A stretch of 64,000 bases of DNA from Akkermansia muciniphila (GTDB taxonomy: Bacteria > Verrucomicrobiota > Verrucomicrobiia > Limisphaerales > SXTU01): positions 16,164 through 80,163 of the forward strand of contig CAMCFN010000006.1 of NCBI GenBank assembly GCA_945874145.1, in the 5' to 3' direction. Position 1 is the stretch's first letter; each line of letters begins with the position of its first letter. A model generated the notes under the pieces. It worked only from the letters and a program-made list of their open reading frames with translations. It was not told where the DNA came from and searched no databases. This document shows, piece by piece, positions 45,878-55,065 of the stretch. Both the position numbers and the translations under genes were made by a program.

Positions 45878-46678
45878 GTGAACGAACGACCAATGAACCT
45901 CGGGCATCCAAGTCGTTCGCCTCTCCCAACTTTTCGCCAAGATCTGAAAGCCCGTCATTCGTCAGCCTGGAGTGAAGCCCCAGGTTTTCAGCCAACCAAC
46001 GACACAAGCCCTACAGGGGCAAAACCTCCCTCCCGCCACCTCCACGCATTCACGATGGTTGAGCTGTGCGTAATACTCAGCCTGCTGGGGATTCTCGCCC
46101 TTGGGTTCGTGGCCAGGCAGCAAGAAGCAAAGGCTAAATCGGGCCGCGTCAAATGCGCAGGCAACCACAAGCACGTCGCGCTCGCGCACAGGGTGTTCGG
46201 AAACGACCACGGAGACCGTTTCACCATGAGCCTCTCCACGAATAAGGGTGGCACGCTGGAGCTGGTCGGCACTGGCAGCGTGATCAGCCACTACCTGAAC
46301 ATGACGAATGAACTCGGGGCACCTCAGATCCTGATATGTCCCGACGACCGAACTCGCACCATGCGAAGGGACTTTCTACCTCTACTCAGCAACACCAACG
46401 TGAGCTTCACCGTCGGCTTGGATTCGGATGAGACGCTGCCAAATTCGTTTCTGGCCAGCGATAACCACATGACTTCGTCCCTGCCGCGCGTGCGGGGCAT
46501 TGCCGGGCTGTCCACCACCGATCTCGCAGGCTGGTCGCAGAGGTTGCACGGTGGCGGGGGAAACTTCGCCTTGGCCGATGGCAGCATTCAGATGTCCACC
46601 AGCGCTACACTTTGGCAGCAGGTCACCCAGGCGCTCGCCTCCACTCGCACCAACAGCCACCGTCTCGAATTTCCATGA
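45878..46678 (+). CDS. prepilin-type N-terminal domain protein with DUF1559-like (H-X9-DG) C-terminus
   Basis: AFTMVELCVILSLLGILALG resembles the G/A-FTLIEL class-III signal. C-terminal RLHGGGGNFALADGSIQ is the H-x9-DG motif of PVC pseudopilins. The start is ambiguous (GTG 45878, ATG 45893, or the internal ATG at MVEL). Confidence 0.65.
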   Translation: MNERPMNLGHPSRSPLPTFRQDLKARHSSAWSEAPGFQPTNDTSPTGAKPPSRHLHAFTMVELCVILSLLGILALGFVARQQEAKAKSGRVKCAGNHKHVALAHRVFGNDHGDRFTMSLSTNKGGTLELVGTGSVISHYLNMTNELGAPQILICPDDRTRTMRRDFLPLLSNTNVSFTVGLDSDETLPNSFLASDNHMTSSLPRVRGIAGLSTTDLAGWSQRLHGGGGNFALADGSIQMSTSATLWQQVTQALASTRTNSHRLEFP

Positions 46679-46898: not shown

Positions 46899-46982
46899 GC
46901 GAGGGGAGAAGGTGGCCGCAGGCCGGATAAGGGGTGCGGCCACTTGCACAGTCGCGGCCAACCCACGACCCTCTCCCCTTGC
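46899..46982. repeat. second structured element: GCGAGGGGAGAAGG ... CCCTCTCCCCTTGC with inner TGGCCGCA/TGCGGCCA stem
   Basis: Read directly. Arms at 46899-46912 and 46969-46982, inner stem at 46913-20 / 46935-42. Confidence 0.65.
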
Positions 46983-47030
46983 TCCGCAAAGGAAAAGGGA
47001 GTCGAAGCGCGTGCGGCTTTCCACCCGCTT

Positions 47031-47066
47031 CTCCCCCATCTCCCATCTCCCATTCCCCATTCCCTC
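47031..47066. repeat. degenerate heptamer tract CTCCCCCAT CTCCCAT CTCCCAT TCCCCAT TCCCTCG abutting the znuC GTG
   Basis: Read directly. Confidence 0.7.
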
Positions 47067-47876
47067 GTGAGCGTTACGCACACCACCTGCAGCCACTCCG
47101 CCGCCGACATTGCCGTCTCCGTGCGCGACCTGCGCGTCACGCTCGGCGGGCAGGCCATCTTGCGCGGCGTGAACATGCACCTGCATCGCGGGCAGCTCGT
47201 CGCGCTCATCGGCCCGAACGGCTCGGGCAAGACCACGCTGCTGCGCGCCATGGTCGGCCTGCAAAAGCCCGACTCCGGCGAGGTCCGCCTCTTCGGCGAG
47301 AGCAACTTGAAGAAGGCCCTGCCGCGCGTCGGCTACGTCCCGCAACGCCTCGCGCTGGACCGCAGCTTCATCCTCAGCGTCCGCGAATTCCTCGCCCTGC
47401 GCCTGCGCGAGACGCAGCATTGGTTCTGGCACCGCCACCGCGACACCGACGACCGCCTCCACGCCGCGATGGCCGAGTTGGGCGCCGAGTCGCTGCTGGA
47501 CCGCCCCATCGCCGCGCTTTCCGGCGGCCAGCTCCAGCGCGTGCTCATCGTCTTCGCTCTGCTGAAACAACCCGACCTCCTGCTCCTCGACGAACCCACC
47601 GCCGGCGTGGACTCGCCCGGCGAACAGGACTTCTACGAAACCATCGCCGAGGTTCACCGCAAGCATAAGCTCACTGTCGTCCTCGTCTCCCACGACCTCT
47701 CGATGGTCTATCGCCACGCCTCGTGGGTCTATGCGCTCAACGGCGTCGTCTGCTGCGAAGGCTCGCCCGAGCACGTGATGAACGCCGACTCGCTCAAGGA
47801 AGCCTACGGCCTGAACGTCACGCCGTATCACCACCACAACCATTCACACGGACCCGGTGGAGGGCACGCGCAATGA
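47067..47876 (+). CDS. znuC: zinc ABC transporter ATP-binding protein
   Basis: Walker A GPNGSGKTTLLR, signature LSGGQLQRV, Walker B LLLLDEP. The track ORF start (46944) runs through the repeats. GTG at 47067 chosen, giving ...IAVSVRDLRVTLGG about 16 aa in. The start is uncertain. Confidence 0.85.
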   Translation: MSVTHTTCSHSAADIAVSVRDLRVTLGGQAILRGVNMHLHRGQLVALIGPNGSGKTTLLRAMVGLQKPDSGEVRLFGESNLKKALPRVGYVPQRLALDRSFILSVREFLALRLRETQHWFWHRHRDTDDRLHAAMAELGAESLLDRPIAALSGGQLQRVLIVFALLKQPDLLLLDEPTAGVDSPGEQDFYETIAEVHRKHKLTVVLVSHDLSMVYRHASWVYALNGVVCCEGSPEHVMNADSLKEAYGLNVTPYHHHNHSHGPGGGHAQ

Positions 47877-48709
47877 GCATCTTCTCCGACATCGAACCCT
47901 TCATGCTCCGCGCCTTCGCGGTGGCCGTTGTCATGGGACCGTTGTGCGCGTTGCTCGGCGTGTTCGTCACCGCGCGACGGATGGCCTTCTTCAGCGACAC
48001 CATCGCGCACGGCGCGTTGGCGGGCATCGGCTTGGGCTTCCTGCTCGGCTTCGAAGACCCCACCTGGCCGATGGTCCTCTTCAGCCTGCTCGTGGCGGCG
48101 GCGATTCTCTGGCTCAAGGAGCACACTGACCTGCTCACCGACACCATCATGGCGCTGCTGCTCTCCGGCTCGGTGGCGTTCGGCATCATCGTGCTGAGCA
48201 TGCTGAAGAACAAACGCGGCGAACTGCACCGCTACCTCTTCGGCGACATCCTCAGCGTCGGCCCGGACGACGTATGGCTCGCGGTGGTGCTGTGCGCGGC
48301 CATCGGCGCGTGGCTCTTCGCGAAGCTGAGTCCGCTGGCGCTGCTCACGGCGAGCGAAGACCTCGCCCACGTCTGCGGCGTGCGCACGCGCTGGTTGAAC
48401 TACGCCTTCGTGCTCGTGCTGACCGTGGTCATCTCCTTGAGCATCCGGCTGCTGGGCATCATCCTCGTCACCTCGCTCGTGGTCATTCCACCCGCCGCTG
48501 CGCGCAACCTCGCGCGCAACCTCCGGCAGCAGCTCATCCTCAGCCTCATCATCGGCCTGTTCGGCGGCGCGGTCGGCACGGTGGCGAGCTACCACTGGGA
48601 CATCCCGTGCGGCCCGGCCATCGTGATGGCGTGCATTGCGGTGTTCATCGGCTCCCTGCTGGCAAGCAAACTCTGGCTGAACCGGCCGGTGAAGGCGAAA
48701 GCGGTTTGA
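47873..48709 (+). CDS. znuB: zinc ABC transporter permease
   Basis: ABC-3 permease pattern (FMLRAF...FFSDTIAHGALAGIGLG...). ATG at 47873 overlaps the znuC stop (ATGA). Confidence 0.9.
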   Translation: MSIFSDIEPFMLRAFAVAVVMGPLCALLGVFVTARRMAFFSDTIAHGALAGIGLGFLLGFEDPTWPMVLFSLLVAAAILWLKEHTDLLTDTIMALLLSGSVAFGIIVLSMLKNKRGELHRYLFGDILSVGPDDVWLAVVLCAAIGAWLFAKLSPLALLTASEDLAHVCGVRTRWLNYAFVLVLTVVISLSIRLLGIILVTSLVVIPPAAARNLARNLRQQLILSLIIGLFGGAVGTVASYHWDIPCGPAIVMACIAVFIGSLLASKLWLNRPVKAKAV

Positions 48710-48814
48710 CGCAAGGGCGCAGAGACGCGAGGAGAACATGACTTCAAACCAACCAAGCGCTATGACTGCCACCAGTTTTCTTCTTTGCGTGCCCGCGTCT
48801 TTGCGCCTGTGCGT
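48709..48814. repeat. REP-like inverted repeat ACGCAAGGGCGCAGAGACGCGAGG ... CTTTGCGTGCCCGCGTCTTTGCGCCTGTGCGT
   Basis: Arms at 48709-48732 and 48783-48814 are imperfect reverse complements. It lies between the znuB stop and the zur start. Confidence 0.7.
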
Positions 48815-48829
48815 TAAATCTTCTCGCCC

Positions 48830-49342
48830 ATGAAGAAGGCCGCCCACGCGCACGCCCACGCCGCCGCGCCGTTGTCTGACCTGACTTCCCGGCTGCGGGA
48901 CAAGTCACAGCGCGTCACCGGGCCGCGTCAAGCCATCCTCGCCCTGCTGCGCGAGCACCGGCACCCGATGACGAACAAGGAAATCCACGCCGCGCTCGCA
49001 AAAGGCGACTGCGACCTCGCGACCATCTATCGCTCCATGCACTTGCTGGAGGAGATGGGAATGGTGAAGCGCTTCGACTTCGGCGATGGCGTGGCGCGGT
49101 TCGAGTTGGTCACAGGCGACGAGCACGCGCATCACCATCACCTCGTCTGCACCTGCTGTGCGGACATCGTGGAGATTGACGACTGCTTCGCGGACGAGCT
49201 GGAGAAGCGCGTCGCCGCTGCGCACGGCTTCAAGAGCGTCACACACAGGCTGGAATTCTTCGGCGTCTGTCCCGATTGCCAGCGGGAAGGTCATTCACAT
49301 GACGAGACGAAACGAGCGCGGCGGAAGCCTTGCGGTTGCTGA
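48830..49342 (+). CDS. zur: Fur-family metalloregulator, Zur-like by context
   Basis: Winged-helix (RVTGPRQAILALLREHRHPMTNKEIHAAL...ATIYRSMHLLEEMGMV). HHHHLVCTCC...CPDC metal sites. Zinc specificity is inferred from znuABC linkage only. Confidence 0.75.
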   Translation: MKKAAHAHAHAAAPLSDLTSRLRDKSQRVTGPRQAILALLREHRHPMTNKEIHAALAKGDCDLATIYRSMHLLEEMGMVKRFDFGDGVARFELVTGDEHAHHHHLVCTCCADIVEIDDCFADELEKRVAAAHGFKSVTHRLEFFGVCPDCQREGHSHDETKRARRKPCGC

Positions 49343-49431: not shown

Positions 49432-51135
49432 CTATTGCAGCGCGAACGGTAGGCGAGACAACCGCGTGTTCAATTCCAGCAGCCGGTTGCGCAGCATGTC
49501 CGTCGTGGTTTTCTCATCGAGGGTGTAGCCCGGCAGCGTCTCGAAACTCTTGATCACGGCGCAGTAGTCTGAGTTGGCCATCACGCCGAGGAACTCGCCG
49601 GTCTTGCTCAGGACGATGTCGCCCGTTGACGGCGAGAACTCACCCTGAAACACGCGGCTGATGATCCGGTTCTTCATCTTCACGTAATCGGGAGTGCGGG
49701 CGTCGAGCTTGAACTCCACTTCGCCGTAGTGCTTTCCACCGCGATTCACCAGCACGGCTTCCGTGAACTTGAAGGGATTCCTGGCCACCGGGTAAAGTTT
49801 CACGCCCATCGCCATGGCCTGCTGTGCGTTCACCGGGATGACAGCAAGCCGAGGATCGGCGGTGATGAAGGTCAGCGCACCACTGCCGATCACCTGCGAC
49901 CCCCTGGACACCCGCGCACCCACATGCTCCATGCCCTGTGGGTTGATGAGTGAAAACGGGGTGTCGCCCACATGGACAATGGCATAGACGCCCCGCCCAT
50001 CATGCACGAGGACGCTCTTTGCTTCCCTGAGGCGCGCACCGGAACCAAGGAGCACCGCTTGATGCGCCGAAATCGCCACATCCACGCGGTTGCTGAGAAA
50101 CTCGCTGAACATGAGGTTCATGTTGATGGGCGTGTTCTCGCGAATCTCCTTGGCGAGTTCGCCGGATTTCGCCGCAAGCTGGCCGACGCCGTCCGTGAGC
50201 CGGGTGGTCTGTGTCTGTAGCAGATCCTTTTCCTGCCGCACCAGGGCCACTTCCTTCTTCAAGTCGGTCAGGTTCTCGCGGAGCAAGTTGCGCTCGGACT
50301 CGGCGACCTTGGCGGCGGTTGATGCCTGGGCGGCCTGGGCGGCGGCGGCTTGCCGTTGTTTCTCCAAGTCGGCCAGCGCGGCCTGCTGCTTCTCCAACTC
50401 GGCCTGCTTCGCGGCAAGAGCGGTTTGCATCTGCTTCTCCAACTGCTCGCGGATCAAGTCGCGCTCGGCCTGGGCAACGCGGACGGCGGTGGCCAAGCCG
50501 ACTGCCTGCTGGGCGGAAGCATTCTGCTGCTTGCTCAATTCATTGAGTGCGGTCTGTTGCTTCTGGATCTCGGCCTGCTTGGTGGCGACAGCCTGCTGCA
50601 TCTCCTGAGCAAGCCGGGCTTTCTCGCTCTCCGCCCTAGCCTTGTCCGCCTCCAACCGGACCTTCTCGGCCTCAACATTCTTGATGGCGGCAGTGAGCGC
50701 GTCCTGCTGCTGCTTGGCGGCCGCAGTAAGAGCTTCCTGTTGCTGCTTGGCCTTTTGCTTCACATCCACCGCCTCCTGGGCCACGGCGGCGTAGCGTTGG
50801 GAAAGCACCTGGGCGGCGGTCTGCGACTGCTTGAGCGTCTGCTCCAACTGGCTGCGCTGGGCCTGAATCTGGGCCAGGGTCTGCTCGCGGGTCTTCACGT
50901 CCGACTCGGCAAATTGCAGCCGCTGCTGGAGTTGATCCCGCGCGGCCTTCTCCTGTTCGAGCGCCACCTTCATCATGTCCACGAGATCCTGGTTCTTGGG
51001 ACGGGCGGCGTTGGCCTGCACCTCCGGCACCGGAGCGCTGGTGTTGCGCACGGGCTCCGCCTCATCCCAGCGGGTCAAGGCCAGCAGGTTCAGCAGGAGG
51101 AAGTCGCAAATGATGAGAAGCAACGTCTTGTTCAT
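49432..51135 (-). CDS. single-pass membrane protein: TM helix with buried Asp, long coiled coil, beta-rich C-domain
   Basis: MNKTLLLIICDFLLLNLLAL, then ~300 aa Q/A/E/K heptad-like sequence with an internal duplication, then a C-terminal domain ending GDIVLSKTGEFLGVMAN. The ATG overlaps the upstream stop (ATGA 51132-51135). Confidence 0.7.
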   Translation of the reverse strand: MNKTLLLIICDFLLLNLLALTRWDEAEPVRNTSAPVPEVQANAARPKNQDLVDMMKVALEQEKAARDQLQQRLQFAESDVKTREQTLAQIQAQRSQLEQTLKQSQTAAQVLSQRYAAVAQEAVDVKQKAKQQQEALTAAAKQQQDALTAAIKNVEAEKVRLEADKARAESEKARLAQEMQQAVATKQAEIQKQQTALNELSKQQNASAQQAVGLATAVRVAQAERDLIREQLEKQMQTALAAKQAELEKQQAALADLEKQRQAAAAQAAQASTAAKVAESERNLLRENLTDLKKEVALVRQEKDLLQTQTTRLTDGVGQLAAKSGELAKEIRENTPINMNLMFSEFLSNRVDVAISAHQAVLLGSGARLREAKSVLVHDGRGVYAIVHVGDTPFSLINPQGMEHVGARVSRGSQVIGSGALTFITADPRLAVIPVNAQQAMAMGVKLYPVARNPFKFTEAVLVNRGGKHYGEVEFKLDARTPDYVKMKNRIISRVFQGEFSPSTGDIVLSKTGEFLGVMANSDYCAVIKSFETLPGYTLDEKTTTDMLRNRLLELNTRLSRLPFALQ

Positions 51136-52889
51136 GCAAGCGGCAGGACGGGTTGCGGGGCGGGCTCAGGCTGGCTTTCCAAAATCAGCCGGTGCTTGGC
51201 GGCGCGCACATGGCGAATCTTGATAAGGGCGACGCAGACGATGCCGAAGAGGTTAGAGGCATAGGCCGCCAGCAAATCGGCCTTGATGACGCCGACGACC
51301 TGGAGCACCAGCGCCGTCGCCGTGCCGGCGATGCCGATGTAGAGCCCGGAGTCGAACAGGTTTTCCTCGTTCTCCATGAGCCGGAGTTTGAGCTGGGGCG
51401 ATCCGGGCGACATCTCGATCTCGCGGATCTTCATCAGGCAGACGGAATACACGCCGACTTGGAGGGCGGCGAAGATTAGCACGCTGAGGATGGTGGACAG
51501 TTCCATACTTGGTTTCGTTACGGTTGTATTCTTACTGGTCGGGACAGGCGAATTCGTCAACACCGGTAGTTTCAGCCGCAGCCGGAATTCCGACGAGCCC
51601 AGCGGCTTGAACAACAGCGGCTCCCCCGCTGCAAGCAGCAGCAGCGCCAGACAGCCGGCCGCCACCGCACGCTGGAAATAAATCATCCGCACCCCGGCTG
51701 CACCGCGACCGGGCGATTGGACGGGAGAGAGCTCGCGCCACACCAAAAAGAATACCAGCCCGGCCAGCAGGAAGAGCAGCACTTTCCCGGCGAGCATCAC
51801 GCGCGGAACCTTGAGTGTCCAGGCCGCGAGAAAGCCCGGCACCCAACCTCGCGCCGGGCCCACCGGCAGTTGCTGTGCCACGAGCAACCGCACCGCGCCC
51901 TCGCCTTGGGCAAGCGCCTTGGTCAAATCCGCGAGCCCCGCCTTGCCAAACCGCAGCAGATAGGTGGCGACCCGATCCGGAGATTGCGCCAGCAAGGCGG
52001 CGGAAAAGAACAGGGGCAAATCGTCCGGCGTGACCTGAACCAACTGGGCGAAGTCGTTCAGCGCCTTCGCGGTTGGCATCAATCGCAGCAGCTCGGAAAG
52101 CTGCGTCCAATCCAGCCGCCGGCCCAAGGCCAGCAGGTCGAAGCAAAAACTTTCCCACTCGGTCGCCAGCCGCGTCTCACTCGTCCGCTCGGCGAGCAGC
52201 CGAATGTCTTGCGCGAGCGTCGGAGCGAACCGCTCGCCTTCATAGAGCAAGGCCGCCAGCAGGATCGTGGCCTCGAAGGGCTGGCCGCCGGGCTGGTTCA
52301 CCGGAATGAACTCCACCGTCGTGGACAGATCCCGGGTGGCCAGAATCGCCCGCCCCCCGGGCGACCGCGAGCTGGCGAGGTGCTCGCGCAAGGCAGCGCG
52401 GTTGGCCTCGATCAACAGAAACGGCAGCATGGCCTCGGCGGTGGGACTCGCATTGTTGGTGTTCCGGCGGAAAATCCCGTCGATATACGAATCACGCCCA
52501 CCTGTGCCCGCAGCGCCGGACTTGACCTGTCCAGCCACCAAGGCCGCCCTCAGCTTGGCCACTTGCTCATCCTTGAGGGATTGCGCCGCTGTTAGCGCGA
52601 GGTTCGCCACGCCCGGTTTTTGCGCAGCGACCGCAGCTAGGCCCAAATCGATCACCGCTGGAGTCCCCTGCCCCGCCCGCTCCAGCAGCGCGGGATGGAG
52701 GGATTTCCAGTTTGCCGGCAACAGCATGCCCAGCCCAACCAGCAAGGCGGAGAGCCCGGCAAACAGGATGACCCGCTTCAAATCCGGAGGCGTGCCGGCA
52801 AGGCTTCCTTGCTCCTCAGCAGGATTCCCGCGTGCCGTGCGCGAGGCGCGCCAGCGGGCTGCATCCAAGGAATTTTCGTCGCCGTTCAC
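51132..52889 (-). CDS. polytopic membrane protein, C-terminal MotA/TolQ/ExbB-like helices (tentative)
   Basis: About 6 hydrophobic segments. Last three: ELSTILSVLIFAALQVGVYSV, LYIGIAGTATALVLQVVGV, LLAAYASNLFGIVCVALI. GTG start at 52887-52889; the start is uncertain. Confidence 0.65.
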   Translation of the reverse strand: MNGDENSLDAARWRASRTARGNPAEEQGSLAGTPPDLKRVILFAGLSALLVGLGMLLPANWKSLHPALLERAGQGTPAVIDLGLAAVAAQKPGVANLALTAAQSLKDEQVAKLRAALVAGQVKSGAAGTGGRDSYIDGIFRRNTNNASPTAEAMLPFLLIEANRAALREHLASSRSPGGRAILATRDLSTTVEFIPVNQPGGQPFEATILLAALLYEGERFAPTLAQDIRLLAERTSETRLATEWESFCFDLLALGRRLDWTQLSELLRLMPTAKALNDFAQLVQVTPDDLPLFFSAALLAQSPDRVATYLLRFGKAGLADLTKALAQGEGAVRLLVAQQLPVGPARGWVPGFLAAWTLKVPRVMLAGKVLLFLLAGLVFFLVWRELSPVQSPGRGAAGVRMIYFQRAVAAGCLALLLLAAGEPLLFKPLGSSEFRLRLKLPVLTNSPVPTSKNTTVTKPSMELSTILSVLIFAALQVGVYSVCLMKIREIEMSPGSPQLKLRLMENEENLFDSGLYIGIAGTATALVLQVVGVIKADLLAAYASNLFGIVCVALIKIRHVRAAKHRLILESQPEPAPQPVLPLA

Positions 52890-53039: not shown

Positions 53040-53870
53040 ATGACTGCCGTCCAGCCCGTCGATATCGAAATTTGCCCCGGCTACTCGCCCCGTCCCAAAC
53101 TGACGCACGCGGTCTTCGACTTTGACGGCACGCTCTCCCTGCTGCGCCACGGCTGGCCGGACACGATGCTGGCCATGTTTTTGGAAATGCTGCCGCCTCT
53201 TCCAGACGCGGTTCCGGCCTCGCTGCGGGCGGAGCTGATGGAGGAAATCCTTGCCTTCAACGGTCAGCAAACCATCCACCAGATGACCCGCTTTGCCGAA
53301 CGGGTGGCGGAACGCGGCGGCCAGCCACGCGAGCCGCAGTGCTACCTCGCCGAATACACCTTGCGCCTTGAGCGCGCCATCGCTGCCCGCACCCAACGCA
53401 TTCGCGATGGAGCCAGCCCGGACACCTACGTGGTGCTCGGCGCGCGCGCCCTGCTGGGACGTCTGCGTGACCGGGGAGTGAAACTCTTCATCCTCAGCGG
53501 CACGCTGGAACCCTTCGTCCGCCAGGAGGCAGCACTGCTGGACTTGGCCCAATTCTTTGAGGACCGCATCCACGGCGGGCACGAGGACCACACACGTTTC
53601 TCCAAGCAGATGGTTTTCGACCGCATCCTCCGCGAGGAAGGCATCTCCGGCGCACGCCTGCTTTCCTTCGGTGACGGCCCGGTGGAACTGCGGCACACCA
53701 AGGAGCTGGGCGGCATCGCGGTCGCCGTGGCCAGCGATGAGACGGAAATCGGCTCCGGCAAAATCCACGAGCAGAAGCGCACGCAGCTCATCGCGGCGGG
53801 GGCGGACTTGGTGATTCCGGATTACCAGTGTCGCGAACCGCTGGTGAAGCTGCTGCTGGGCGACCGTTAA
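53040..53870 (+). CDS. HAD-superfamily hydrolase
   Basis: Motif I AVFDFDGTL, motif II LFILSGT, motif IV SFGDGPVE. Start trimmed to the ATG at 53040 (GTG at 53037 is also in frame). Confidence 0.8.
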   Translation: MTAVQPVDIEICPGYSPRPKLTHAVFDFDGTLSLLRHGWPDTMLAMFLEMLPPLPDAVPASLRAELMEEILAFNGQQTIHQMTRFAERVAERGGQPREPQCYLAEYTLRLERAIAARTQRIRDGASPDTYVVLGARALLGRLRDRGVKLFILSGTLEPFVRQEAALLDLAQFFEDRIHGGHEDHTRFSKQMVFDRILREEGISGARLLSFGDGPVELRHTKELGGIAVAVASDETEIGSGKIHEQKRTQLIAAGADLVIPDYQCREPLVKLLLGDR

Positions 53871-53883
53871 TTCTTCGACCGCG

Positions 53884-55065
53884 ATGCAACCTCCCGTCCC
53901 CCTCGATCTCTCGAAAATCCGCGTCTTCCCGCTCGCGCAGCGCAAGAGCATGAGCACCGTGGACGAGGTGCTCATCGAGCCGACCAACACGCCGCCGCCC
54001 GTCAGCGACTTCAACGCCGCGCTCATCGAGCGTTGCGCCCGCGACATCAAGGCCGCGTTGGAGCGGGGTGCCTCCGTGATGTTCATCTACGGCGCGCATC
54101 TCGTGAAGAACGGTGGCCAGCTCCTGCTCGGCCAGATGCTCGACCGCGGCTTCCTGACCCATCTCGCGACGAATGGCGCAGGGACGATTCACGATTGGGA
54201 GTTCTCCTGGCTGGGCCGCTCCACCGAAAGCGTTCGCGACAACGTCGCCACCGGCAGCTTCGGCACCTGGGACGAGACGGGGCGCTACATCCACCTCGCG
54301 CTGCTCACGGGTGCTGTGCGTGGCTGGGGCTACGGCAGGTCGCTTGGCAAGTTCATCTACGAAGACGGCACGTTTATCCCGACCGAAGCCGAGCTGACGA
54401 AACAGATTCAAGCCGAGCCGGGCCACCCGCTCACGTCTGCGCGCGCAGACCTGCTCCAGGCCATCCAACGCTTCGGCCTCAAGCCCGGCCAGCACATCGT
54501 CCCCCACCCGCACCGCAACAGCAGCGTGCTCGCGCAGGCCGCGCGCCACGACGTGCCCTTCACCGTCCACCCCGGCATCGGCTACGACATCATCTCAAAT
54601 CATCCGTGGTTCAACGGTGGCGTCATCGGGCGCGCGGCGGGCGTGGACTTCGCGCTGTTCGGCGGGTCCGTGGAGAAGCTGGATGGCGGCGTGGTCCTGA
54701 GCGTCGGCTCGGCCATCATGGGGCCACAGGTCTTCGAGAAGAGCATCAGTTGCGTGAACAACCTGCGCCTGCAAGCGAACCGCCCCATCGTCAGCGGCCA
54801 CAGCATCTACGTGGTGGATTTGCAGGACGGCGGCAACTGGGACTGGACCCAAGGCGAACCACCCAAGGACAACCCGGCCTACTACCTGCGCTTCTGCAAG
54901 AGCTTCTCCCGCATGGGCGGTGCGATGCACTACGCGCAGTGCGACAACGTGGCCTTCCTGCATCACCTCTTCCACAAGCTGGAAAGCCTCCACGGTCGCA
55001 CGGCGGCGAAGGCGAACATTCCGGACATTGGCGACCCGAACCCCGAACCGCGCTACAAGTGGTGA
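53884..55065 (+). CDS. conserved protein, deoxyhypusine-synthase-like fold suspected
   Basis: YGAHLVKNGGQLLLGQMLDRGFLTHLATNGAGTIHDW, VPFTVHPGIGYDII and VVLSVGSAIMGPQV parallel the DHS segments (...VDVLVTTAGGVEED..., ...IPVF.PALTDGS..., ...ILGGGV.KH) as I recall them. The CDS itself is solid; the family call is tentative. Confidence 0.55.
   Translation: MQPPVPLDLSKIRVFPLAQRKSMSTVDEVLIEPTNTPPPVSDFNAALIERCARDIKAALERGASVMFIYGAHLVKNGGQLLLGQMLDRGFLTHLATNGAGTIHDWEFSWLGRSTESVRDNVATGSFGTWDETGRYIHLALLTGAVRGWGYGRSLGKFIYEDGTFIPTEAELTKQIQAEPGHPLTSARADLLQAIQRFGLKPGQHIVPHPHRNSSVLAQAARHDVPFTVHPGIGYDIISNHPWFNGGVIGRAAGVDFALFGGSVEKLDGGVVLSVGSAIMGPQVFEKSISCVNNLRLQANRPIVSGHSIYVVDLQDGGNWDWTQGEPPKDNPAYYLRFCKSFSRMGGAMHYAQCDNVAFLHHLFHKLESLHGRTAAKANIPDIGDPNPEPRYKW

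Follow-up and report, generated by a model that had tools for sequence, protein, structure and literature searches.

The A-B gene pair and its distribution

Two minus-strand genes, designated A and B, were analysed in a 64,000-nucleotide stretch of DNA from the verrucomicrobial lineage Limisphaerales (contig CAMCFN010000006.1, positions 16,164 to 80,163; hereafter the window, to which all positions refer). A encodes a polytopic membrane protein and B a single-pass membrane protein, and the 4-bp overlap of the two reading frames implies that their translation is coupled. An original prediction, made from the letters of the window alone, had described the overlapping genes as standing between a convergent zur-type gene and a divergent HAD gene, and had proposed that they might encode an ion-driven motor or force-transducing pair. 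The arrangement was found as described (Table 1). As reported below, the A-B pair is a real module across Verrucomicrobiota, wholly unannotated, and it has stator-like operon logic, a stator-like conservation pattern and stator-like features at the motif level.

In a word-indexed search, 98 matches to protein A were obtained, the lowest identity being 36%. With an exhaustive hidden Markov model (HMM) search, 753 representative clusters (50% identity) were found at E<=1e-3, including 336 at E<=1e-30; among the 150 clusters listed, most sequences were full-length (approximately 530-610 aa) and some were shorter fragments. When one genome per species was scanned, a relative of A was encoded in 546 genomes. 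The best 80 of these belonged to Limisphaerales/Pedosphaera, Opitutaceae, Nibricoccus, Rariglobus and the cultured Opitutaceae strain EW11; all of the carrier genomes that bear a name are Verrucomicrobiota. Several records of metagenome-assembled genomes carrying the pair (L011, L012, L018, L019, L023, L013, L015) are titled "uncultured Klebsiella sp.", "Klebsiella pneumoniae" or "Proteobacteria bacterium"; these titles are evidently taxonomic mislabels. In the source records, all homologues of A and B are named "hypothetical protein" or carry a coiled-coil mis-annotation.

The expectation that the two genes would co-occur in other genomes was borne out. Of the 80 genome loci, 77 have the N-terminus of B downstream of A, and in the remaining three the contig ends at or just after A; a B orthologue follows A on the same strand in every locus with downstream sequence, the exceptions being contig ends. 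The A-then-B order is also kept in two pairs at only 27-30% identity, which have different neighbours. Since A and B always occur together while their neighbours differ from lineage to lineage, they behave as a self-contained two-gene unit. The homologues of either protein number in the hundreds, and the arrangement exceeds what chance would give. Homologues of TolQ, ExbB, MotA, TolR, ExbD or MotB were not found by tblastn within the 64-kb window, and TolQ, ExbB and MotA homologues were also absent from the first 86 homologous loci examined.

Table 1. Coordinates of the A-B gene pair, its encoded features and its flanking genes. TM, transmembrane segment; ORF, open reading frame; AF2, AlphaFold 2 model; pLDDT, predicted local distance difference test.
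Feature	Position	Strand	Basis and remarks
Gene A	51132..52889	minus	ORF, 585 aa, GTG start; polytopic inner-membrane protein, no family annotation
A TM1, residues 40-58	52716..52772	minus	hydropathy; ends in invariant P58
A residues 59-363, all-helical soluble domain of ~305 aa	51801..52715	minus	AF2, pLDDT mostly 85-95
A TM2-TM3, residues 364-427	51609..51800	minus	weakly conserved; ends in near-invariant E423-P424
A C-terminal module, residues 464-572	51174..51500	minus	TM4, TM5, TM6; AF2 helices 464-493, 498-531, 539-572
A acidic motif K-L-R-L-M-E-N-E-E-N-L-F-D-x-G-L, residues 501-516	51342..51389	minus	cytoplasmic extension of TM5
A TM5, residues 517-535, motif Y-I/V-G-I/L-x-G-T-A/V	51285..51341	minus	hydropathy, hhalign
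A TM6, residues 540-558, motif A-A-Y-x-S-(T/N)-L-F-G-I	51216..51272	minus	hydropathy, extended hhalign
ATGA overlap, A stop and B start	51132..51135	minus	junction CTT GCA TGA, B ATG inside
Gene B	49432..51135	minus	ORF, 567 aa, ATG start; single-pass membrane protein
B N-terminal TM helix MNKTLLLIICDFLLLNLLALT, residues 1-21	51073..51135	minus	most conserved part of B
B Asp11 codon GAC, intramembrane Asp	51103..51105	minus	sequence
B residues 22-49, Pro-rich disordered linker	50989..51072	minus	AF2 pLDDT <50 for 23-48
B residues 50-316, coiled coil	50188..50988	minus	AF2 helices 50-181 and 190-316
B residues 350-540, HtrA/DegS-fold double beta-barrel domain	49516..50088	minus	AF2 pLDDT ~90; Foldseek
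B C-terminal helix, residues 545-560	49456..49503	minus	AF2
Fur-family gene, convergent flank	48830-49342	plus	preceded by znuC- and znuB-like genes
HAD hydrolase, divergent flank	~53070-53870	plus	

The Asp-bearing helix, coiled coil and HtrA-like fold of protein B

Hydropathy analysis of protein B gave a single TM at residues 3-21, which contains Asp11 (D11), and the AF2 model (pLDDT 74) places a helix at residues 2-21. The buried Asp in a lone N-terminal TM, as originally predicted, is thus present; furthermore, it was found to be conserved in all of the 77 orthologues obtained by the genome scan and in five more distant pairs (L001, L003, L005, L171, L172). Among 77 species, the N-terminus follows the pattern M-N-(K/R)-T-L-L-L-(I/V/F)-(I/L/V)-(C/V/I)-D-F-L-(L/F)-L-N-L-(L/I)-A-L-T. 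Asn16 (N16) is kept in 75 of the 77 orthologues, the position being N, T or S overall, and the C-D-F-L core survives in the pairs at 27-30% identity. The mean frequency of the top residue is 0.96 in the TM helix, as compared with 0.63 in the HtrA-like domain and 0.42-0.50 in the coiled coil. D11 sits 7 residues into an 18-residue helix preceded by only 3 residues. The flanking charges leave the orientation unfixed, and the N-terminus was assumed to be cytoplasmic (N-in), as in a signal-anchor-like protein.

The coiled coil and the beta-rich C-terminal domain expected to follow the helix were both recovered in the AF2 model (residues 50-316 and 350-540). The coiled-coil region varies in length from 156 to 313 aa among the orthologues, and their insertions and deletions all fall within residues 134-238, on either side of the predicted helix break or tip at residues 182-189. 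Changes centred on the break are as expected of an antiparallel hairpin, here with arms of approximately 12-23 nm; the AF2 model and the alignment make a hairpin of lineage-variable length the most likely structure of this region. A 33-bp segment is tandemly duplicated at 50686-50751 and encodes AKQQQEALTAA followed by AKQQQDALTAA. In close orthologues, this 11-residue repeat is present in one (P0125) or three (P0122) copies, and such duplications appear to drive the variation of the hairpin length.

In one locus (L001, 9778-11967), the B orthologue is 729 aa long, and an extra segment of approximately 110 residues, made of (V/I)-x-Q-(L/V)-type repeats, separates its coiled coil from the HtrA-like domain. 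The stalk can thus lengthen at the base as well as at the tip of the hairpin. Matches of B to SMC, LmuB, JetC and ZorA3 (E 0.33, inside the coiled coil) were rejected as compositional, and the PF24161 and PF28019 tags carried by some B homologues were not reproduced by direct scan.

When the C-terminal domain of B was compared with PDB structures by Foldseek, 92 matches were obtained at E<=1e-3, the best having an E value of 2.6e-6 and a probability of 1.00. All of the 50 matches listed are Deg/HtrA-type serine proteases, with Deg1, Deg2, Deg9, DegQ, DegS, DegP and HtrA1 among them, and the target-normalised TM-score was around 0.5 for targets consisting of the protease domain only. The alignment of B with DegS was anchored on the conserved G-E-(L/F)-x-G-(I/V) strand, hhalign of the B domain against DegS, DegQ and a verrucomicrobial HtrA being not significant (0.3%) and serving only to locate this strand. 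With this sequence anchor, the nucleophile Ser201 of DegS aligns with position 504 of B, a position occupied by T, A, R or P in the orthologues. The trypsin-fold-like strand lacking a GxSGG serine, which had been noticed at the end of B, was fully confirmed.

The HtrA/DegS-like fold raises the question of whether B could be an active, atypical anchored serine protease that uses S503, H388 and D427 in a DegS-like manner, with A as its substrate, regulator or intramembrane-signalling partner. In agreement with such an activity, D427 is invariant, and at least 90% of the closer orthologues keep H388 and S503. However, S503 is replaced by N or A and H388 by Q or E in some orthologues, the position equivalent to the DegS nucleophile is variable as described above, and B lacks a GNSGG-type motif, a PDZ domain and any match to the Trypsin or Trypsin_2 families of Pfam, only the helix 545-560 following the domain. 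An active protease was consequently judged highly improbable. Without a conserved Ser nucleophile, a PDZ domain or a Trypsin_2 match, the C-terminal domain of B is to be regarded as a pseudoprotease, and it is most likely a binding module.

With its N-terminal membrane anchor and its chymotrypsin-fold domain, presumed to be periplasmic, B resembles DegS and other HtrA proteins (MEROPS S1C), from which it is distinguished by the losses just listed and by the coiled coil of approximately 270 aa inserted between anchor and domain. The pseudo-HtrA assignment is of value for annotation regardless of how the pair works. In one Opitutaceae lineage (L005/L006, 12483-13493, minus strand), a canonical HtrA gene with Trypsin_2 and PDZ domains and an intact GNSGG motif lies approximately 3 kb from A-B and served for comparison with the degenerate domain of B; no conserved linkage of a canonical HtrA gene to the pair was seen among the loci.

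Protein A and the signature of TolQ and ExbB

Protein A has six TM segments by hydropathy, at residues 40-58, 364-382, 405-427, 467-485, 517-535 and 540-558, the last three being the hydrophobic helices that had been noticed in its last ~120 residues. Its AF2 model has a pLDDT of 78. No Pfam, NCBIfam or PADLOC family matched A or any of seven homologues, and the domain of residues 59-363 found no PDB fold match in a Foldseek search with the full A model (best E 0.66). The positive-inside count favours an orientation with both termini in the cytoplasm (N-in/C-in). In this orientation, the 305-aa helical domain and the loop 428-466 would be periplasmic, as the same count predicts for the helical domain, and the ENEENLFD loop and the basic K-I-R-H-V-R tail would be cytoplasmic. 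In the AF2 model, the helices of TM4-6 each reach approximately 8-19 residues into the predicted cytoplasm (about 15-19 for TM5 and TM6). The predicted topology of TM4-6 is then that of ExbB TM1-3: a periplasmic N-side, a cytoplasmic loop, a hairpin and a basic cytoplasmic tail.

Invariant residues of A were sought in 129 diverse representatives sharing 26-57% identity. In this set, the invariant residues are P58, F473, Q477, N507, E508, F512, L516, G519, G522, S545, G549, K557 and R562, and 12 of these 13 lie in the C-terminal module. Within the acidic motif, the invariant N507, E508, F512 and L516 are accompanied by K501, L504, D513 and G515, each conserved in at least 90% of the members; the same holds for T523, Y517 and Y543. 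The mean conservation is 0.78 for TM6, 0.66 for the cytoplasmic loop before TM5 and 0.63 for TM5, and 0.40-0.45 for TM1-3. The C-terminal consensus of the family reads LKLxLLENEENLFDxGLYVGLxGTVxSLIL...AAYxSTLFGIxFVAxLKIxHVRP, position 546 being T in the wider family and N in the clade from which the window derives.

A transport function can also be considered, since weak top Foldseek matches of A are secondary transporters and the order of elements in B (TM anchor, alpha-hairpin of 12-23 nm, beta-rich domain) recalls periplasmic adaptor or membrane-fusion proteins. A would then be a six-TM transporter or flippase with a periplasmic domain, and B a periplasmic adaptor with its hairpin directed toward the outer membrane. 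However, the Foldseek matches of A are noise (E>=0.66, TM-score ~0.1), and the beta domain of B is a trypsin fold and not one of the lipoyl, beta-barrel or membrane-proximal domains of adaptors. Furthermore, Pfam gave no HlyD/MFP match, conserved genes for an outer-membrane factor or a pump are absent from the neighbourhood of the pair, and the poor conservation of TM1-3 is unlike that of a substrate pathway. Such a role was found to be improbable.

A relation of A to ion-driven stators was examined by profile-profile comparison (hhalign) with a TolQ/ExbB reference profile built from E. coli TolQ and ExbB, their database homologues and 80 environmental TolQ relatives. No signal was obtained with a first, shallow alignment of A (E 0.06-0.23). 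With diverse A profiles, the score rose to 31.2-31.8 (E 2.4-2.9e-3), and the hairpin of A alone gave a score of 27.0 (E 7e-4). For comparison, the E. coli MotA control reached 28.8-29.9 against the same profile. In addition, 150 column shuffles of the A hairpin scored 12.7+-2.4 (maximum 19.7), the reversed profile 14.8, and 11 profiles of real TM families taken from the same verrucomicrobial loci 11.4-18.0.

The match concerns the second TM signature of TolQ/ExbB. Residues 516-525 of A, L-Y-(I/V)-G-(I/L)-x-G-T-(A/V), align with residues 138-147 of TolQ, P-Y-I-G-L-F-G-T-V-W, so that G519, G522 and T523 of A correspond to G141, G144 and T145. In the extended alignment, TM6 is in register as well, position 546 of A facing TolQ T178 and G549 facing G181. 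Threonines of the T145/T178 type ring the Asp in known motors (PMC12204202). Counting residues from the cytoplasmic face with B assumed N-in, D11 of B lies at a depth of approximately 7 residues, like T523 of A, and N16 at approximately 12, like S545 and position 546; the same 7/12 relation is given by T145 and T178 of TolQ. The resemblance between A and TolQ/ExbB therefore appears to be specific and is suggestive, short of a proof of homology. The small-residue and Thr spacing that had originally been likened to the MotA/TolQ/ExbB channel core thus gained a motif match in profile comparison (E ~2.5e-3), which did not extend to membership of the family.

Indeed, several observations weigh against a stator assignment. 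The profile and fold matches expected for the C-terminal helices of a MotA/ExbB-like protein were not obtained: PF01618 (MotA_ExbB) matched neither A at E<=1 nor its homologues, and it was not among the 25 most frequent families listed, out of 60 with a match to at least one member, when 85 divergent A members were scanned at E<=10. NCBIfam and PADLOC, with ZorA and ZorB included, gave no match supporting a stator family. No chain of a solved stator was found when the A1 and A6 profiles were searched against all PDB sequences with hmmsearch, and no stator protein was present among the 50 PDB matches listed by Foldseek for full-length A (best E 0.66), the three-helix module inside the 585-aa model being a weak target for such a search. 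On the side of B, there was no match to ExbD (PF02472), MotB_plug (PF13677) or OmpA-like families, only generic coiled-coil matches being returned by Pfam and NCBIfam; its N-terminus gave no hhalign signal against a TolR/ExbD profile, a test without power as the MotB control also failed.

The profile match itself has its limits. It includes only 10-13 confident columns with a probability of 11-26%, and the reference profile is shallow (effective number of sequences, Neff, 2.8). Single A sequences score like other TM ORFs; among 66 unrelated multi-TM ORFs, 2 attain at least 27. Comparisons with single E. coli TolQ, ExbB or MotA sequences or with an enterobacterial profile (Neff 1.5) were uninformative, the MotA control reaching only 6.6%, and the global mode of hhalign gave a score of 2.6 for A against TolQ/ExbB. 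With HMMER, a TolQ/ExbB hairpin HMM barely detected MotA (6.5 bits), and A-family ORFs were enriched near the top of the list at noise-level scores. Three structural points have to be added on the same side. Only 3 residues precede the TM of B, whereas the TM Asp of E. coli MotB, ExbD and TolR is preceded by a longer N-terminal stretch. To our knowledge, an additional module of three TM and a periplasmic domain, together with a near-absent cytoplasmic domain, is not known in the A subunits of stators. Finally, HtrA-fold domains usually trimerise, which fits poorly with a dimer of B.

That all standard tests of stator-family membership fail speaks for a static or allosteric envelope complex devoid of motor activity. 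B would then be an anchored pseudoprotease adaptor for a periplasmic or outer-membrane partner, A its receptor or sensor, and Asp11 part of a polar zipper (Asp/Asn to Gln/Thr/Ser/Asn) locking the B helix to A. The composition of B, a coiled-coil hairpin with a catalytically dead hydrolase-fold domain, agrees with this role; the large, well-folded helical domain of A, predicted to be periplasmic, could dock B, and polar TM residues commonly drive helix association. The FtsX-EnvC system offers a parallel, in which a polytopic protein with a periplasmic domain works with EnvC, made of a coiled coil and a degenerate LytM domain.

However, A-B has no FtsE-like ATPase, B is itself anchored by the Asp-bearing helix, its dead domain has a trypsin fold and not a LytM fold, and no sequence relationship to FtsX-EnvC was detected. 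Nor do the genes beside the pair include an ATPase or another energy source for an EnvC/FtsEX-like switch. Furthermore, a static complex leaves unexplained both the coincidence of the best conserved motifs of A with the TolQ/ExbB signature and register, and the near-invariance of the whole B helix across the phylum. We regard it as less likely than a motor, and as the most probable of the rival readings.

Proposed mechanism, related systems and neighbouring genes

The idea of a motor or force transducer is partly supported, by the Asp, the synteny and the motif match, and finds no support in any of the standard membership tests. Stator-like working of A-B is plausible, and the motif match somewhat strengthens it. 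The reading that we favour, at a probability somewhat short of even, is that A-B is a divergent proton-driven machine of the TolQ/ExbB-TolR type, in which B serves as Asp axle and force transducer. More tentative again is the proposal that the pair represents an unrecognised, divergent class of 5:2-type proton-driven rotary or ratchet motors distributed across Verrucomicrobiota, whose A subunit has a periplasmic instead of a cytoplasmic domain.

In the scheme that we infer, with regard to complex formation, topology, ion coupling, stoichiometry and output target alike, A and B would form a dedicated inner-membrane complex. TM4-6 of A would build a channel-lining ring around the N-terminal helix of B, whose Asp11 would be protonatable and lie at the depth of Thr523 and Ser545/Thr(Asn)546 of A. 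The flow of protons would displace B with respect to A, and the movement would pass through the linker and the 12-23 nm hairpin of B to the catalytically dead HtrA-like domain, acting as a binding or output module. The 305-aa helical domain of A would stand in the periplasm beside the base of B. A single chain, B, would in this way combine a transpore Asp helix (the role of TolR, ExbD or MotB) with a periplasmic transducer (the role of TolA or TonB).

A precedent for such an all-in-one B is provided by proteins in which a TM-Asp transpore helix (TPH) is fused to an output domain. These TPH-vWA proteins pair with tolQ-like genes in the absence of tolR, including in Verrucomicrobia, and have so far been predicted only (PMC12204202). 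Described as "monomeric force transducers" (Mol Biol Evol 2025, PMC12204202), these modules resemble A-B in having two genes with no tolR or exbD, and a single-pass partner in which an Asp transpore helix is joined to a periplasmic output domain. They differ in that their A subunit is a recognisable TolQ homologue, their output domain is vWA and the pairs are often heterologous (PMC12204202), whereas here A is undetectable by family HMMs and a single B carries a coiled-coil hairpin and a pseudo-HtrA domain. A broad survey of MotAB homologues published in 2025 covered only families that are detectable by sequence (PMC12505986).

Compared with the 5:2 motors TolQ-TolR(-TolA) and ExbB-ExbD(-TonB), the A-B pair shows the same gene order, a polytopic-subunit gene followed by a single-pass-subunit gene, and a partner TM helix with an invariant Asp. 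The C-terminal hairpin of A presents G-L-x-G-T-V and x-(T)-x-x-G-(L/I) in the same register, and, as in TolA, a helical element, in B presumed to span the periplasm, ends in a globular domain that would serve for binding. The differences are nevertheless considerable. A-B gives no match to PF01618 or PF02472 and no fold match; in A, TM1, the 305-aa domain predicted to be periplasmic and TM2-3 are additional, and a cytoplasmic domain is almost lacking. B would unite the roles of TolR and TolA in one chain; it has 3 residues before its TM and ends in a pseudo-HtrA domain in place of the C-terminal domain of TolR, TolA or TonB. In addition, the pair is not linked to genes for Pal, TolB or TonB-dependent receptors.

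The GldL-GldM and PorL-PorM motors offer another comparison, since their A-type subunit is not recognisably MotA/ExbB by sequence and their motor nature was recognised only from structure. As in GldM and PorM, a very short N-terminus precedes the only TM helix of B, and a long extension follows, in B presumed to span the periplasm. The key acidic residue of the GldLM motor is on GldL, and GldM carries an Arg. GldM is built of a chain of beta-rich periplasmic domains, in contrast with the coiled coil and trypsin fold of B, and GldLM belongs to Bacteroidota, where it is linked to the genes of the type IX secretion system.

If A-B is ion-driven, it would constitute a new architectural class beside MotAB, ExbBD, TolQR, GldLM, ZorAB and AglRQS, and would illustrate the direct fusion of an Asp-helix axle with a coiled-coil stalk and a dead protease domain. 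Little is known of the envelope biology of Verrucomicrobiota, a phylum abundant in soil, in freshwater and in the gut. An ion-driven A-B pair would give the phylum a candidate system by which the inner membrane is coupled to the outer envelope, and its presence across Verrucomicrobiota would probably point to a core envelope function. Both families are without a Pfam or NCBIfam model and yet occur in at least 546 species-level genomes, so that defining them would be of value for annotation. D11 and T523 offer direct genetic tests in cultured Opitutaceae.

Concerning the neighbourhood of the pair, a peptide deformylase (def) gene, which is absent from the window itself, was found within 6 kb of A-B in 34 of 42 long loci, mostly of Opitutaceae and often divergently adjacent; this nearness is probably due to inherited gene order and not to a functional link. 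The Zur gene of the window occurs near the pair in 1 of 85 loci and the HAD gene in 12 of 85. Fur-family and HAD genes also recur near A-B in the pairs at 27-30% identity (L171, L172). A functional tie of A-B to its zur/znu or HAD neighbours was rejected because these are not conserved with the pair. A defence-system reading was likewise rejected: PADLOC gave no family match, the pair has no island context, and its neighbours are housekeeping genes.

In the window, a metal-uptake cluster on the plus strand (46944-49342), composed of a znuC-like ABC ATPase, a znuB-like ABC-3 permease and the Fur/Zur-family regulator, converges on the 3' end of gene B, the stop codons being separated by approximately 90 bp. 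No convincing intrinsic terminator was recognised between the cluster and the 3' end of gene B. On the other side, a plus-strand ORF of 393 aa without a Pfam match (53884-55065) is flanked by the HAD hydrolase and a PfkB-family kinase. Finally, a plus-strand ORF of 266 aa (45878-46678), which had no Pfam match in the scan, begins with the prepilin-type N-terminal motif FTMVELCVILSLLGILA and has a C-terminal ...ALADGS... motif, a pattern typical of a large pseudopilin-like family of the Planctomycetes-Verrucomicrobia-Chlamydiae (PVC) lineage.

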